Positions 42,118-48,955 of a DNA stretch of 64,000 bases are shown here, piece after piece (within the stretch, counting starts at the first letter, position 1; the number at the start of each line of letters is the position of its first letter). Both the position numbers and the translations under genes were made by a program. This stretch comes from Ostreococcus lucimarinus (Eukaryota). Location: the NCBI GenBank assembly GCA_000092065.1, contig CP000593.1. One strand, given 5' to 3'. Under the pieces are notes generated by a model, which did not search any database, was not told the DNA's origin, and worked only from the letters and a program-made list of their open reading frames with translations.

Positions 42118-44868
42118 ATGCACGAGCGATACGAATCGCGCGTCGTAGAACACACCGCCGCTCTTCGCGAGCAGAAAGCCCTCGCGAAGTTCCTAGCGCT
42201 TTTTAGTCACGTAGCCGTCAACTTTCGAGCGACGACGACTCAACCTCACAGCGCGACGCCGGTCGCGTCATGCCACCGCGCGCGCGCGCGATCCCTCACC
42301 CTAAAACCGAATCCGATCCGTTTGATCTCGCCGACGTCGCGAGCGCGCTCCAGGTGCGCGCGCGAGCGCTCGTTTTCTCAAGCTCAACTGTCCGCGCAAC
42401 GACCCGACTCGACGACTGACGACGAAACGACGGCGACTCGCGCGCAGGATGACGCGCGCGCGCACGTCGGTGAGTTCGTGGTGAACGAGTTCAAGCGGCA
42501 CGAAGCGTACGTGCGCGTGGAAGGGCTGCCGCTGGACGTCAAGTGCGAGGGCTGGGAGCGTCAGGGCAGAAGCGTGCACGGCGACCGCGTGCGAGTGGTA
42601 ATCGACGCGTGCGATCGCTGGGAGCGCGTCGTGGGGACTAAAGGCGAGATTTCAGACGAAGAGAGAGCGTTCGTAAGCGTAGAGGCGCTCGCATCGGTGT
42701 GTCGACGAGGGTGGCGACCGACGGGACGCGTCGTCCCGGATGCGCCGGTGACGCCGGCGACGCGGCGCTCGAGGATGGTCGGGAGGGTAGAAGTCCAAGA
42801 CGGCGGCGCGTCGCTCACATTCGTGCCCTTGGATCCAAAGTTGCCGAAGGGCCGCGTTTCTGAGTTTAGCGTGCCGAAGTCGTTACAGAAGACGCTGGCG
42901 TCGGGGGCGGAGGATGTCGAGGACGTCTTCGTGGCGGTGCGACTTAGAAAGTGGAGCAAAGGGATGTCGATGCCGATGATGGACATCATCGAGGTCGTGG
43001 GAAAAGGAAGTATGGGTGATGATTTAGATTTCATGACGAAAGTCATCGTCGCCGAGCACGGCATAGAGAGCGGAGATTTTAGCGCGGATGCGACGGCGTG
43101 TTTACCAAAGGTCAAAGTCGGCGATCACTGGAAAATTCCACCCGAGGAGATGAAACGGCGGGTGAATTTTAGGGAAAAGCTCGTTTTTAGCATAGACCCA
43201 CCGACGGCGCGAGATTTGGACGATGCGCTGAGCGTCCAAGTTTTGCCCGATGGTTGTCTAAACGTCGGCGTGCACATCGCCGACGTGTCACACTTCGTCA
43301 AGCCTGACACGCCGCTCGACGCCGAGGCGAGAGAACGAGGCACCACGACGTATCTCGTGCACACCATTTTTCCAATGTTGCCTAGACTTTTGTGCGAAAA
43401 TCTGTGCTCACTCAATCCTGGCGTTGAAAGATTAACGTTTTCGGTGGAATGGAAGATGACGCGTGGTGGCGTTGTGAAGAATGTCTCGTTCAAGCGTGGC
43501 GTGATAAAGAGCGCTGCGAAGCTGTCATACATTCACGTTCAAAATGTGATCGATGCTGGGTCGGACGTGAACAAAGCGAAAGAGGCACTAGATGATGTGA
43601 AGTTTTCAGGCGCGTACACCGCTGAAGACGTCATCGAGAGCATTTCAATCTTGAACGCAGCTGCGAAAGCGATGCGCAAGAAGAGATTTGAAGCCGGCGC
43701 TGTTCGATTGGATCAACCAAAGGTTGGTTTTGAGCTTAACGATGACTACGAGCCCGTGGGAGCTGCACCTTACGTCATTCGCGACAGCAATCGTCTTGTC
43801 GAGGAGTACATGCTACTCGCCAATATGTACGTCGCCGAGTTCATAGCCGAGATTTTCCCATCGCACGCCATGCTTCGATGCCATCCGCCGCCGAACGAAC
43901 GGAAGCTCATGGAGCTATCCACGTTCGCCAGCGAGCACGATATCGATATCGACATATCATCTTCGAAACGTCTTCACGACAGTTTGCGAGCAATAGCGCG
44001 CGACTCGCAAGATTTGTTTGACATCGTGCAGCTGCTCGCTACAAAGCCCATGCAACTGGCGAAATACTTTTGTACGGGGAGCGTGGACGAAGAGCAATGG
44101 CGGCATTACGCTCTCGCCGTTCCTTATTACACGCACTTTACGTCGCCTATTCGTCGATATCCGGATATCATTGTGCATCGTCTACTCGCAGCGGCGCTCG
44201 AGCACGCTGAGAGACAAGGGAAATCCAGTGAGCGAGACGTCGTAGAGAAACACAGTCTCATGACGCCGGAAATCTGTAGCGACGTCGCTGATCACTGCAA
44301 CGAGCGGAAACTCGCGGCGAAGTACGCCCAAGAGCGGAGTCAGCACTTGTTTCTCTGCAAATATCTGCAGAAAAATCCGGTCATCGCGCGTGCGATTGTA
44401 AGGCAACTCGGGCAGCAATACGTCGTCGCCTATCTCCCGGCGTTTGGATTCGAAATCAAAATTTACCTCGAAAAGCAGCGTCACGTGAAAGTCACACAAA
44501 AGGGATTTTCAAAGGGTCAATCATTGACGAAAGAATTAGACGTGACGTTAGACGTCCGTAAAGAGTGCGAAGAGGCCGCGAAAATCGCCGCTGCGGGTGC
44601 CGCCGCACTCGAGATTTTAGATCGATCGACGTACAAGAGCACGCTCAAGCACGCCAGAGGTTTGCGCGGGCGATGCCTCAATACTACGGAAGAGCAAGAG
44701 ACGTTCATAGATGATGCGGTCATGGACGACGCGCTGGTTTTACCTACTTCGATCAAGGCGCTGGATAAGATGCCTGTGATTTTATGCGTGCACAAAGAGT
44801 CGACAATTAAGTTTGAGATTTACGGCCACGTCCTCTTCTCAAATCCATTTTACACAGCTTTCGCTTAG
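42118..44868 (+). CDS. RNase II/R-family 3'-5' exoribonuclease, DIS3L2/SOV-like (cold-shock domains + RNB, no PIN domain)
   Basis: RNB core [83 protein letters not shown] at 42118 lies only 32 bp after the GATA gene stop, so the true 5' end may differ. Confidence 0.75.
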
Positions 44869-45273: not shown

Positions 45274-46533
45274 TCACATCTCCTCGTCCGTGGCTTCTTC
45301 AGAGTTCGACCCGGCGTCCGAGTTATCGGACAAGGGGAACTCCATGACACAAGATGGAGTCTGAGGGCGCATAGTGGCCTCCTTGGCGTCTGTAAACGAG
45401 AAGGCGTGCGCGGTCGACATAGACGCACCGCACAAGTTCGGAACGCTGATGGTGGATCGCAGACGATCGTTGCGTTCATACGTGTAATACGCAACGACAC
45501 CTTCCACGTCAAACTCTTGGCGAGTAGCTTGCGCGCGAGAGTATCCCGGCACAAATGCACCGTTGGCGAGCACTTCAGTGGCGACCTCAGCGGCGTTCAA
45601 ACCGTCGATGGAGATGGCGAACACCATCTTCCCGGGCTTGAACACGGAGGCGACCTTACGAACGTACGCGAAGGCATCGAGGTCTTGCACTTCCACGTTG
45701 GACAGCTCGCACGAGGCGTACGAGAATCCATCTTCGGGAGTGATGTGAATAGTGCTGAACTGGCCATCTAAAGAGCCTTTCTCGTGCAAGCCATTCATCG
45801 AATACCCGCACGGTTCGAAGACGTAGTCGTCGATGTCAAATTCCTCAAAAATCGATCGAATACCGCTGTCTGTGGTGGTTTGGGCCGAGCTCACAAAGGT
45901 TTCTTCTTTGCGATAGAAGTGTTCTTCGCAATGCGCGCGATTGAGATGCGTCATGCACACTTCGAGAGAAGCCTTCGGTCTGGCGTCTTGCAACGGGCAC
46001 GCGTCGCCAGAGACATACACGTGCCATTGCACACCCTTGAGTTTACTCCCCAAGATGTAAGACGACCCACCAGCCGCCGACAAGTTACCGAAGTGTTTCT
46101 CCAAAAACGCAGTCTCGTCATCGAACGAGGCGTGCAATTCGGGTTGCAAGTCAGGCTTGTCAAACGACGAGCGCGTAAACTTGACGCGTCGCGGTTCCAT
46201 GCCAACCTCGGCGGCGTACTTCAAGATGTTCGGCACACCCGCGAGAAGATGCGTGGTGCCACACGTCTTCAACACCAACTTGGTGGGAAAGACGAAGAGC
46301 GATGACTCCGACAAGACGTAGGCGTCAAATTTGTCATTCGAGCGAACGCTGACGATTTCACACCGCGCCGCCGTCATGCACTCATCGAGCTGCGCCCGCG
46401 CAATCTCCCTCAAGCCGCGCGGGTTCCTCTCGTTGAAGTGAAAGTCAATTTCAATGCGCTTCTCCGCGCCCTCAAAGTGCGGCGACGGGTAAATCCCGTC
46501 CACCGTCGTCACGGAAGCCGTCGCAGCAACCAT
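45274..46533 (-). CDS. SAMDC: S-adenosylmethionine decarboxylase proenzyme
   Basis: Landmarks FEGAEKRIEIDF, VLSESSLFVFPTKLVLKTCGTT, processing-site region, FSTIHITPEDGFSYASCE. ATG at 46533. Confidence 0.9.
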   Translation of the reverse strand: MVAATASVTTVDGIYPSPHFEGAEKRIEIDFHFNERNPRGLREIARAQLDECMTAARCEIVSVRSNDKFDAYVLSESSLFVFPTKLVLKTCGTTHLLAGVPNILKYAAEVGMEPRRVKFTRSSFDKPDLQPELHASFDDETAFLEKHFGNLSAAGGSSYILGSKLKGVQWHVYVSGDACPLQDARPKASLEVCMTHLNRAHCEEHFYRKEETFVSSAQTTTDSGIRSIFEEFDIDDYVFEPCGYSMNGLHEKGSLDGQFSTIHITPEDGFSYASCELSNVEVQDLDAFAYVRKVASVFKPGKMVFAISIDGLNAAEVATEVLANGAFVPGYSRAQATRQEFDVEGVVAYYTYERNDRLRSTISVPNLCGASMSTAHAFSFTDAKEATMRPQTPSCVMEFPLSDNSDAGSNSEEATDEEM

Positions 46534-46647
46534 GATACTATACCTCGTCGATACGAAATCTACGTATCCACGTTTCCCAACGTCAAATCAATTCTTCTAG
46601 TTGCGTTTTCCTCACGAGCACGCTACTCTTTAATCGATTTCACCGTG

Positions 46648-46803
46648 TCAGGAAGGTGATCTCGTCAAGTCCTGATACGCGCTGCTCGCGTACTTTTCGC
46701 ACCCCCACGGTCGCAAATCGGCGATGAAGCTCGATTCCGTTACCTTGTTCTGTTCCTCTTCGTCCCGTATATTATCGCTACTACCGTCCTCGGAGTCCAT
46801 CAT
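46648..46803 (-). promoter_or_regulatory. conserved peptide uORF in SAMDC 5' leader (51 codons, MMDSEDGSSDNIRDEEEQNKVTESSFIADLRPWGCEKYASSAYQDLTRSPS*)
   Basis: Starts with a tandem ATG ATG and stops 114 nt upstream of the SAMDC ATG. Its C-terminal half matches the plant SAMDC small-uORF peptide pattern (S-I-x-D-x-R-P-x-G ... S-A-x-Y ... R/S-P-S-stop). Confidence 0.7.
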
Positions 46804-47472
46804 CTTCGTCGTCGATTCGCGGCCTTCGCCTTTTTTCGTGTTTTCGAGCTTCTCGCCCTTTTATTCCCTCACCCGAGAGAGCGTACGAGTTTGACTCCTT
46901 CGCCGCGCCTAAACTTTACTGTTGACCGTCCCTCGTTCACGCCGATCGACCTCTCGCCGTTCGACGCGCGCGCGTTATCCGTCGCGACGCTCGCGGCCGA
47001 CAATAATCAAACTTTATCACCGAACGCGCGCGTGCTCGCCCGTCCTTCGTCCCGCGCGCTGACCGCAACGCGTTTTACGATCGATTAATCTTTCGATCGG
47101 CGCCGCGATGAAAACGCGTGCGCGAGCTTTTATTCGCCTCGTGCGTCGCGCGCGAGGTGCGTCGCGCTGGAACGAGCGTGCGTTCGGGCGCGAGGATTTT
47201 GTTTCGCGACGTGCGTCGGCCGTGCGGGTGCGCGGGCGCGTGTGCGTCGAGTGGTGGCGCGCGATGCGACGCGGCGGCGACGCGACGTCGACGCGGTTCG
47301 GCGATCGGGTATCCGATTAGGGCTTTCGAGACCACAGGCGAGGCAGAGGCGACGGCGAAGGAGAGATCGAGGGCGCGACGCGCGCGCGATGACGGGTGAA
47401 AAGAGAACGTAAGTGATGTCGTGGTATTAAGAATGAGATCTAAGCGTGGATGAGGCGTGAAAACGAATCGTG

Positions 47473-47497
47473 CGAACGAACGAACGAACGAACGAAG
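47473..47497. repeat. (CGAAC)5 pentanucleotide repeat in EFL 3' UTR
   Basis: cgaacgaacgaacgaacgaacgaag, 55-80 nt downstream of the EFL stop (47552-47554). Confidence 0.8.
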
Positions 47498-47551
47498 GCG
47501 CGCGACGTCGCGCCGAGTGGACGACGAGCCGGCGACGAGCGATTTCGTCGC

Positions 47552-48955
47552 TTAGATGGCCTTGTACTCAACCTTGGTGATCTTACCCAACATGACGGCG
47601 GTGTTACCGTCCAAGAAAGCGATGCGGGAAAGACCTTCGCACTTCTTGAAGGAGTCGACGACGAGCGGGTGGACCGGCTCGAAGACGCACTCGGCGACTT
47701 CGTTGGACTTCAACGACATCGGGGACTCGAGCTTCTTACCGCCGGTTTCCTTGCCAACCTTGAAGTTGAGCGCGGTCAACTTGCACGCGGAGCGGCCGCA
47801 TCGGACGAAACCGATGGGGCTGTAGCCCGCCTTGAGTTCACCCGGAATGTCCAAGGTTTGGATTTGCGCGGTGAACTCCTTGCACGGGGCGAGGGAGGTG
47901 TCCTTCTTGTAGATCATCACGTCACCGGTGCGCGGCATGTTGAGCTTGTCGAGACCCTTGATGTTCATACCGACGTTGTCACCCGGCGCGGCGGCTTCGA
48001 CGCGCTTGTGGTGCATTTCGACGGTGAACACCTTACCACCGCACGGGTTGGAGGAGGTGTGGGTCGGGAGGAAGACGACGTCTTCACCCGGCTTGACGAG
48101 ACCTTGCTCGACGCGACCGGCGAGGACATCACCGACACCCTTGATCTTGTAGACACCGGAAATCGGAAGGCGCATGGCGGCTTCCGTGTTGCGGTCCGGC
48201 TTGTCGACCATGTCGTTGAGGACGTTGAGGAGGCAGTCGATGTGGAACTTCTTGCCGCCGCCCATGTAGTCTTCGACGTCGACGCCGTTCCACCACGGCA
48301 TCTTCGCGGACTTGGACAACAAGTTGTCGCCGTTCCAGCCAGAGATCGGGAGGACCGGGACGCTCTTCTCGACGTAATCCTTCTTCCAGCCGACCTTGAT
48401 CAACATGTTCTTCATTTCGTTGCGAATTTCTTCGTAACGCTCTTGCTTGTAGCCAGCCATGTCGCAATCCATCTTGTTGATGCCGCAAATGAGCTGCTTG
48501 ACGCCGAGCAAGTTGAGAAGACGCGCGTGCTGGCGCGTTTGGCCTTGGACTTCACCAGCCTTGTGGTTACCCTTTTGGATGGCGACCGTGAAGTTACCGT
48601 CCGCCGGCACCATGAGAAGCGCCACATCGGCTTGCGCCGCGCCGGAAATCATGTTCTTGATGAAATCGCGGTGACCCGGGGCGTCGATGATGGTGTAGTG
48701 CCACTTGTCCGTGAAGAATTCCTTGGTCGTGCAAGAAATCGTCACACCACGCTCACGCTCTTCCTTTTGGCGATCCATGTAGAACGCGAACGCGAAAGAA
48801 GACTTACCGAGCGCATCGGCTTCGGCGCGAAGCTTTTCGAGTTCGCGCTCCGGGATACCCCCGAGCTCGAATAACAAGCGACCGGTCGTCGTCGACTTAC
48901 CGGAATCGACGTGACCGCAGATCACGATGGAAAGATGTTCCTTGCCTTCAGACAT
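47552..48955 (-). CDS. EFL: EF-1alpha-like translation elongation GTPase (EFL)
   Basis: MSEGKEHLSIVICGHVDSGKSTTTG... G1-G4 GTPase motifs (GHVDSGKST, DAPGH, NKMD). Shows EFL-type rather than EF-1alpha-type sequence along its length. ATG at 48955. Confidence 0.9.
   Translation of the reverse strand: MSEGKEHLSIVICGHVDSGKSTTTGRLLFELGGIPERELEKLRAEADALGKSSFAFAFYMDRQKEERERGVTISCTTKEFFTDKWHYTIIDAPGHRDFIKNMISGAAQADVALLMVPADGNFTVAIQKGNHKAGEVQGQTRQHARLLNLLGVKQLICGINKMDCDMAGYKQERYEEIRNEMKNMLIKVGWKKDYVEKSVPVLPISGWNGDNLLSKSAKMPWWNGVDVEDYMGGGKKFHIDCLLNVLNDMVDKPDRNTEAAMRLPISGVYKIKGVGDVLAGRVEQGLVKPGEDVVFLPTHTSSNPCGGKVFTVEMHHKRVEAAAPGDNVGMNIKGLDKLNMPRTGDVMIYKKDTSLAPCKEFTAQIQTLDIPGELKAGYSPIGFVRCGRSACKLTALNFKVGKETGGKKLESPMSLKSNEVAECVFEPVHPLVVDSFKKCEGLSRIAFLDGNTAVMLGKITKVEYKAI

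Follow-up and report, generated by a model that had tools for sequence, protein, structure and literature searches.

Upstream open reading frames (uORFs) that mediate feedback by polyamines have been described as the rule for the mRNAs of S-adenosylmethionine decarboxylase (AdoMetDC or SAMDC) across eukaryotes (PMC2811004). The closest described system is the small uORF in the SAMDC 5' leader of plants (Pfam family AdoMetDC_leader, PF08132; conserved-peptide uORF (CPuORF) homology group 3; CPuORF9-11 of Arabidopsis), which has 48 to 55 codons and represses in a sequence-dependent manner (PMC2811004). For Arabidopsis AdoMetDC1, the uORF has been found to cause polyamine-responsive ribosome arrest at its stop codon and to trigger nonsense-mediated decay (NMD) (Uchiyama-Kadokura et al. 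2014, pmid 24929422, cited in PMC5587730 and PMC7106846); going by PMC5587730, this is the only gene of the family for which arrest at the uORF stop codon has been demonstrated. In land plants, the small uORF is part of a dual-uORF circuit, in which a tiny uORF of 2-3 codons overlaps it. Conserved uORFs are likewise found upstream of SAMDC in green algae, i.e., in Chlamydomonas (DCA1), Volvox, Ulva, and prasinophytes. Peptides of homology group 3 were reported from Ulva and Chlamydomonas (Hayden and Jorgensen 2007, PMC2075485), the DCA1 uORF has been termed 'the evolutionarily conserved uORF' after Hanfrey et al. 2005 (cited in PMC12319295), and Ivanov, Atkins and Michael 2010 (PMC2811004) commented specifically on prasinophytes. 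According to the latter paper, the overlapping tiny uORF is longer in Chlamydomonas and Volvox and is reported absent from prasinophytes.

Two more distant systems follow a similar logic. The mammalian AMD1 uORF (MAGDIS) encodes a nascent peptide that stalls the terminating ribosome as a response to polyamines, as we predict for the uORF studied here; unlike the latter, it has six codons, is cap-adjacent, and has neither sequence similarity nor a penultimate proline, and it is considered to be of independent origin (PMC2811004). The fungal arginine attenuator peptide (the arg-2 / CPA1 uORF) is another metabolite-responsive nascent peptide, and by arresting the ribosome it exerts feedback on an enzyme of biosynthesis (PMC2075485, PMC5587730), although pathway, effector, and peptide differ and its sequence is unrelated to that of our uORF.

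The locus compared with these systems lies in a 64,000-nucleotide stretch of Ostreococcus lucimarinus DNA (contig CP000593.1; 62% G+C), which is referred to as the window. The original prediction had placed a uORF of 51 codons with an ATG ATG start in the leader of a SAMDC gene. When the sequence was read again, its coordinates, strand, codon count, start, and peptide (MMDSEDGSSDNIRDEEEQNKVTESSFIADLRPWGCEKYASSAYQDLTRSPS) all matched exactly (Table 1), and the spacer of 114 nt that had been claimed between uORF and main ORF was measured at the same length, with the main ATG at 46533. The gene-free leader, described beforehand as about 1 kb, was measured at 1018 nt, as the next gene upstream, encoding an EF-1alpha-like GTPase, ends at 47552. 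The two start codons lie in the contexts ACGAAGATGA and AAGATGATGG, both with A at -3 and the second also with G at +4. Orthologous uORFs begin MD.EDG with one Met only, and counted from the second AUG the uORF would have 50 codons. With 51 codons, the uORF falls within the plant range. A search with the SAMDC protein gave 3026 homologues, among which the nearest named sequence was that of Mantoniella beaufortii; by BLASTP, the two are 50% identical along 85% of the query, and the multiple alignment gives a value of 55%. This similarity places the locus in Mamiellophyceae, and G+C content together with clade structure suggests an Ostreococcus-like alga, probably within the Bathycoccaceae.

Table 1. 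Features of the SAMDC locus and its neighbors in the window.
Feature	Position	Strand	Remarks
Conserved-peptide uORF	46648..46803	-	51 codons plus TGA stop; ATGATG start; homologue of the SAMDC leader peptide
Tandem uORF start ATG ATG	46798..46803	-	second ATG is the counterpart of the single start codon of orthologues
C-terminal module, aa 26-51, FIADLRPWGCEKYASSAYQDLTRSPS	46651..46728	-	portion alignable with the plant peptide; presumed arrest module
uORF stop TGA	46648..46650	-	directly after Pro-Ser; presumed ribosome arrest site
Spacer between uORF and main ORF, 114 nt	46534..46647	-	no AUG; five further stops in the uORF frame
Main ORF, S-adenosylmethionine decarboxylase proenzyme, 419 aa	45274..46533	-	intronless; Pfam SAM_decarbox, E 2.5e-96
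5' leader above the uORF	46804..47255	-	AUG-free; covered colinearly by same-species transcriptome contigs L027 and L028
EF-1alpha-like GTPase gene	47552..48955	-	next gene upstream on the same strand
RNB (Dis3-like exoribonuclease) gene	42118-44868	+	convergent neighbor of SAMDC

Two transcriptome contigs of the same species (L027 and L028, MMETSP-derived, JGI assembly; 99.6% identity to the window) start at window position 47255 and continue without gaps through the uORF and the SAMDC coding sequence (CDS) into the convergent RNB-domain gene. The transcribed leader therefore reaches at least 452 nt above the uORF AUG, and the contigs begin upstream of the uORF and not below 46648. As both are colinear with the genome, nothing is spliced out between the uORF and the main ORF. 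The assembly corresponds to an MMETSP transcript in the SAMDC protein cluster of this species. The original prediction had called for evidence that the uORF is part of the SAMDC transcript, and these contigs span leader, uORF, and CDS colinearly. They are, however, unstranded assemblies that merge the convergent RNB gene, so that a single sense RNA is well supported and not absolutely proven. With this proviso, the evidence is strong for contiguous transcription of the uORF region and the SAMDC CDS. Relatives gave cleaner support: uORF and CDS were found together on one 2.5-kb transcript contig of Mantoniella beaufortii (L012) and on one contig of a Bathycoccus-like transcript (L110), and three spliced contigs (L106, L058, and L057), from which GT-AG introns have been removed in the SAMDC sense, also carry both on the same RNA.

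Apart from the two ATGs of the uORF, the coding strand has no ATG in the 722-nt transcribed leader or in the whole 1018-nt intergenic interval, whereas shuffles of the interval contain 5.7 ATGs on average (P~0.04). An AUG-initiated tiny uORF of 2-3 codons overlapping the uORF start is absent, as the coding strand above the uORF has no ATG in either stretch. The gate of the land-plant dual-uORF circuit is therefore missing from this locus, which also sets it apart from Chlamydomonas and Volvox and agrees with what has been reported for prasinophytes. In the transcripts of relatives (L110, positions 1-757; L106, 1-571; L057, 1-596), the uORF AUG was again the sole AUG before the main AUG. That the uORF start is the lone leader AUG both in the window and in three related lineages points to selection against other upstream AUGs and to a single-uORF architecture.

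With regard to the downstream neighbor, the convergent arrangement of SAMDC and the RNB gene is kept in relatives with 74-82% and with about 50% SAMDC identity, i.e., as conserved microsynteny across Mamiellophyceae. Contig L028 lacks about 50-70 nt at window positions of about 42367-42439, near the 5' part of the RNB gene, which are present in both the window and L027; this gap could represent a small intron, an alternative isoform, or an assembly variant.

We then compared the uORF peptide with the plant leader peptides. In a scan against 24,736 Pfam families, AdoMetDC_leader (PF08132) was the sole match (14.3 bits, E 0.038), with uORF residues 27-51 aligned to profile positions 26-51 of 51, so that both end at the stop. 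As the score lies below the gathering cut-off of 25 bits, the single sequence would not be called a member by Pfam's rule. The model was probably built mainly from plant sequences, since the members retrieved were all from land plants, and 5 of 15 picoalgal uORF peptides matched it, the best with E 4.6e-5. An HMM built from plants only, using 23 angiosperm leader peptides, ranked the uORF first (15.6 bits, E 8e-4; runner-up 7.2 bits) among the 1364 ORF segments in the six frames of the window. With the same HMM, the uORF peptide scored 16.7 bits, whereas the maximum among 20,000 composition-matched shuffles was 12.8 bits and none of them reached the real score. Finally, an hhalign comparison of the alignment of picoalgal uORFs with that of the 23 angiosperm peptides (49-53 aa) gave a probability of 96.4% and an E value of 1e-9; the 34 aligned columns extend to the C-terminus on either side. 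The picoalgal uORFs in this comparison were picked by position, and three of the sequences were hand-spliced or taken from spliced contigs. As for the plant peptides, PF08132 is assigned to every match listed in their retrieval, and 'S-adenosyl-l-methionine decarboxylase leader peptide' or 'CPuORF' appears as the name of many.

In a joint alignment, 12 residues of the uORF peptide were identical to those of all 14 plant peptides (M2, G7, I27, D29, R31, P32, G34, K37, S40, Y43, P50, and S51). The window and plant peptides are colinear, with a common M-[DE]-S..G N-terminus and, in the C-terminal half, I-x-D-[VL]-R-P-x-G, K-[FY], S-x-x-Y, and R-x-P-S-stop. Taken singly, the plant peptides share only 28-35% identity with the window peptide. 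The C-terminal pattern that had been proposed from the sequence alone was thereby borne out in most of its parts: the basic K, the S..Y pair, and the terminal R-S-P-S-stop align with invariant plant columns, but the S said to open S-I-x-D-x-R-P-x-G is in fact F. The penultimate proline is present (R-S-P-S-TGA), and both P50 and S51 fall in invariant plant columns. Some related uORFs end closer to the plant …Y-S-N-C-A-R-K-P-S than the window peptide does, i.e., …VYQDCARSPS (L050) and …SYGDCAKEPS (L105). A HMMER search with a profile combining the window and plant peptides returned 302 representatives at E<=1e-3, with 88-115 bits among the 150 matches listed; those of the listed matches that were also found in the plant-peptide retrieval are from land plants, and this profile is dominated by plants and uninformative on algae. 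Upstream of the C. incerta SAMDC gene, no uORF homologue was recognized within 2.5 kb by the plant HMM, the picoalgal HMM, or a motif regular expression. Together, the in-register similarity up to the stop, the hhalign result, and the ranking against window ORFs and shuffles bore out the proposed homology to the plant small uORF peptide, and we consider that the uORF very probably belongs to the AdoMetDC leader peptide family (CPuORF homology group 3), as judged from sequence.

Homologous uORFs were also found at related algal loci. SAMDC homologues with 74-82% identity came from marine and estuarine metagenomes only, and the window's clade comprises at least six lineages at this level of identity, from coastal metagenomes. 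Four such proteins led to eight loci, six of which have a called homologous uORF of 50-51 aa located 91-166 nt upstream (e.g., MDVEDGSSDNIFRDQLELNEAFESALVADLRPWGWEKYQDASYYDLTRPPS and MDLEDGSSDYIRDEEEHNRVTESSLVAELRPWGTVKFANAEYQDLTRSPS); the other two (L006 and L007) have no upstream ORF among the gene calls. Scanning of metagenome contigs with a SAMDC alignment extended this to 80 loci, and nearly all of those with enough upstream DNA bear a single uORF that contains the DLRPWG core and is related at its C-terminus. The related Mamiellophyceae uORFs have 45-62 aa and share an acidic N-terminus (M-[DE]-x-E-D-G-S-S-D-N-I or a variant), the core [AE]-D-[LI]-R-[PLF]-W-G, and the related C-terminus. 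For six lineages of the window's clade, pN was 0.15-0.32 and pS 0.55-0.73, the latter near saturation, with dN/dS of 0.07-0.41. Far from being missing at orthologous loci, the uORF is thus present in dozens of them and is under purifying selection.

The uORF stop codon was TGA at all those Mamiellophyceae-like loci where it could be read directly or predicted after splicing (L042, L046-48, and L049). At two further loci, it was TAA (L105, chlorophyte-like and more distant) and TAG (L108, probably truncated by an intron). Among the relatives, one AT-richer group looks Bathycoccus-like and the intron-bearing groups look Micromonas/Mantoniella-like. The acidic N-terminal motif (M-[DE]-x-E-D-G-S-S-D-N-I(Y/F), window positions 46771-46803 on the minus strand) is kept in Ostreococcus-, Bathycoccus-, and Micromonas-like uORFs (L002-L110), and angiosperm peptides have MESKGGKKKSSSS at this position.

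Several of these relatives carry variant uORFs. In Micromonas/Mantoniella-like loci, the last 5-8 codons of the SAMDC uORF are separated from the rest by a GT-AG intron of about 100 nt, as seen when genomic and spliced sequences are compared (L100, about 937-1041, with position 437 of L106/L058; L087 with L057). When unspliced, the tail of these uORFs is unrelated, and the conserved end (…GYTN|IPGRPPS-stop and …AIAD|LRARPT-stop) is encoded only after splicing. An intron was also predicted at the same uORF position, after Y/F-x-D, in some Ostreococcus-like loci (L042, 1238-1346; L046/L047; and L049; GTGCGT…TGCAG or GTACGT…TGCAG), where the predicted spliced ends are …DYQD|CARHPR-stop and …VFHD|CARHLR-stop, the second with Leu for the penultimate Pro. 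The uORF of the window species has no intron. With an intron just before the uORF stop, splicing could decide whether the arrest-type C-terminus is made, and, if so, the intron would add a splicing-dependent layer of SAMDC control in these relatives. A different variant was found in the Bathycoccus-like lineage (L110, 444-620, an MMETSP transcript equivalent to L070/L013; P0014 cluster), with a DIR[LF]WG core and the end …FFDVLTVRRKCA-stop. This end (…VLTVRRKCA-stop) lies on an unspliced transcript colinear with the genome and lacks the penultimate proline. Non-vertebrate AdoMetDC uORFs are said always to have this proline (PMC2811004), to which the Bathycoccus-like lineage is an exception.

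Taking the homology and the leader architecture together, we regard it as probable that the window uORF is a polyamine-responsive element of the SAMDC leader, which represses SAMDC translation through peptide-dependent ribosome arrest at its stop codon. A scanning ribosome would meet the uORF AUG as the first and only AUG, and for this reason most ribosomes would, in our proposal, translate the 51-residue peptide. The C-terminal half of this peptide (I-x-D-L-R-P-x-G ... K-Y/F ... S-x-x-Y ... R-x-P-S-stop) is a homologue of the small-uORF peptide of plant AdoMetDC and, by analogy with the latter, the terminating ribosome would be stalled on Pro-Ser-TGA by the nascent peptide when polyamines are high. 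Such a stall would keep ribosomes from scanning to the SAMDC AUG, which lies 114 nt downstream, or from reinitiating there, and it might trigger NMD. When polyamines are low, termination would be efficient and SAMDC would be made, either by reinitiation over the AUG-free 114-nt spacer or by leaky scanning. The locus would then represent the single-uORF form of the circuit, operating without an AUG-initiated tiny uORF. Besides the Pfam score below the cut-off and the unstranded nature of the contigs, two observations count against this explanation. The Bathycoccus-like end …RRKCA-stop, without Pro-Ser, means that the C-terminal arrest motif is not universally kept, and the N-terminal half is acidic in the window uORF and basic or Ser-rich (Lys/Ser) in plants. 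More tentatively, Mamiellophyceae as a group may carry an ancestral single-uORF circuit with no tiny-uORF gate, with an acidic lineage motif (M-D-x-E-D-G-S-S-D-N-I) that is absent in plants, and with splicing-dependent control in the intron-bearing relatives; we consider this a possibility with the odds against it.

The same observations could be read differently, namely, as a regulatory uORF of this family that is polyamine-unresponsive in this lineage and represses constitutively or answers to another signal. The missing tiny-uORF gate, an N-terminal half (MD.EDGSSDNI) that is unlike plants and yet conserved in Mamiellophyceae, and the loss of the R-x-P-S end in one sister lineage would fit with such a change. 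However, the main ORF encodes an enzyme of the polyamine pathway, conservation with plants coincides precisely with the C-terminal module, which reaches the stop in register, and feedback by polyamines through uORFs is reported as the rule for eukaryotic AdoMetDC mRNAs (PMC2811004). We therefore consider this reading unlikely, though it survives better than the other alternatives.

A word-indexed protein search with the uORF peptide found same-species sequences only. These public calls (L001, 4001-4165; P0121-P0123) consist of one in which the TGA is read as Trp (…SPSWHG), a chimeric call of 86 aa, and a frameshifted copy in a long-read-like assembly, and all three are artefacts that come from annotating eukaryotic contigs with gene calling of the prokaryotic type.

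Purifying selection on the peptide would also be expected if the uORF encoded an independent small protein acting in trans, and metagenome gene callers do give the uORF as a separate gene. Against this reading, the uORF is always directly upstream of SAMDC on the same strand in many lineages and shares transcript contigs with it, and the homologous plant family has been shown to be cis-acting (PMC2811004). An independent protein is thus improbable, and a cis-acting leader peptide is the reading we retain.

Two further possibilities, that the region extends SAMDC at its N-terminus or provides it with a 5' coding exon, or that an RNA structure is conserved instead of a peptide, were largely refuted. 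The uORF is in the frame of the main ORF, with the ATGs 270 nt apart, and fusion-type sequences of uORF and main ORF are found for this family in some angiosperms (PMC7106846). On the other hand, six in-frame stops lie between the uORF and the main ATG, the transcript contigs are colinear with the genome with nothing spliced out, and the spacers of closer Ostreococcus-like loci (91, 104, 130, 141, 142, and 166 nt) do not keep the frame; in L105, which is more distant, the spacer measures 61 nt, and the spacer sequence shows little conservation among orthologues. As for an RNA element, positions 46534-46830 folded somewhat better than shuffles, with a marginal z of -1.98, and an Rfam scan of 46300-47600 gave only a spurious match to a bacterial sRNA (E 0.87). 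Nucleotide conservation was higher in the uORF (0.67-0.76) than in the 200 nt upstream and in the spacer, and the near-saturated synonymous sites argue against constraint at the RNA level. The missing Rfam match and the marginal folding score are consistent with conservation at the level of the peptide, and it is the peptide, going by these sequence comparisons, and not an RNA element, that is conserved. Both an exon and an RNA structure consequently appear very improbable.

When the leader was shuffled with its dinucleotides preserved, roughly one shuffle in two gave an ATG-initiated ORF of at least 51 codons (P~0.5), and the length of the uORF was therefore rejected as evidence. A chance ORF in a GC-rich leader with a coincidental resemblance to plants, to which this frequency and the modest Pfam E value of 0.038 would lend some color, is refuted by the orthologous uORFs at dozens of loci, the peptide kept at near-saturated synonymous divergence (dN/dS), the hhalign result, and the rank and shuffle tests with the plant HMM, and we give it next to no credence.

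The original prediction held that a conserved uORF peptide in a picoalga would imply a feedback mechanism older than land plants. The uORF family does extend to this picoalga, but the implication is not new. The reports of Hanfrey et al. 2005, Hayden and Jorgensen 2007, and Ivanov et al. 2010 had already established a pre-land-plant origin of the peptide and of its presumed mechanism. The SAMDC leader uORF in green algae is thus already known, and the present result is confirmatory and no discovery. For Ostreococcus itself, a literature search for a SAMDC uORF found nothing, although the prasinophyte uORFs are probably shown in the supplementary figures of Ivanov et al. 2010. Since the depth of conservation has been published, the value of the present analysis lies in better annotation of picoalgae and in a clean comparative data set. 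It confirms the SAMDC leader peptide as one of the most deeply conserved regulatory uORFs of the green lineage, which the smallest free-living eukaryotes have retained while synonymous change came near saturation, and the locus provides a simple version of the circuit, with one uORF, in a group with compact genomes and available reporters.
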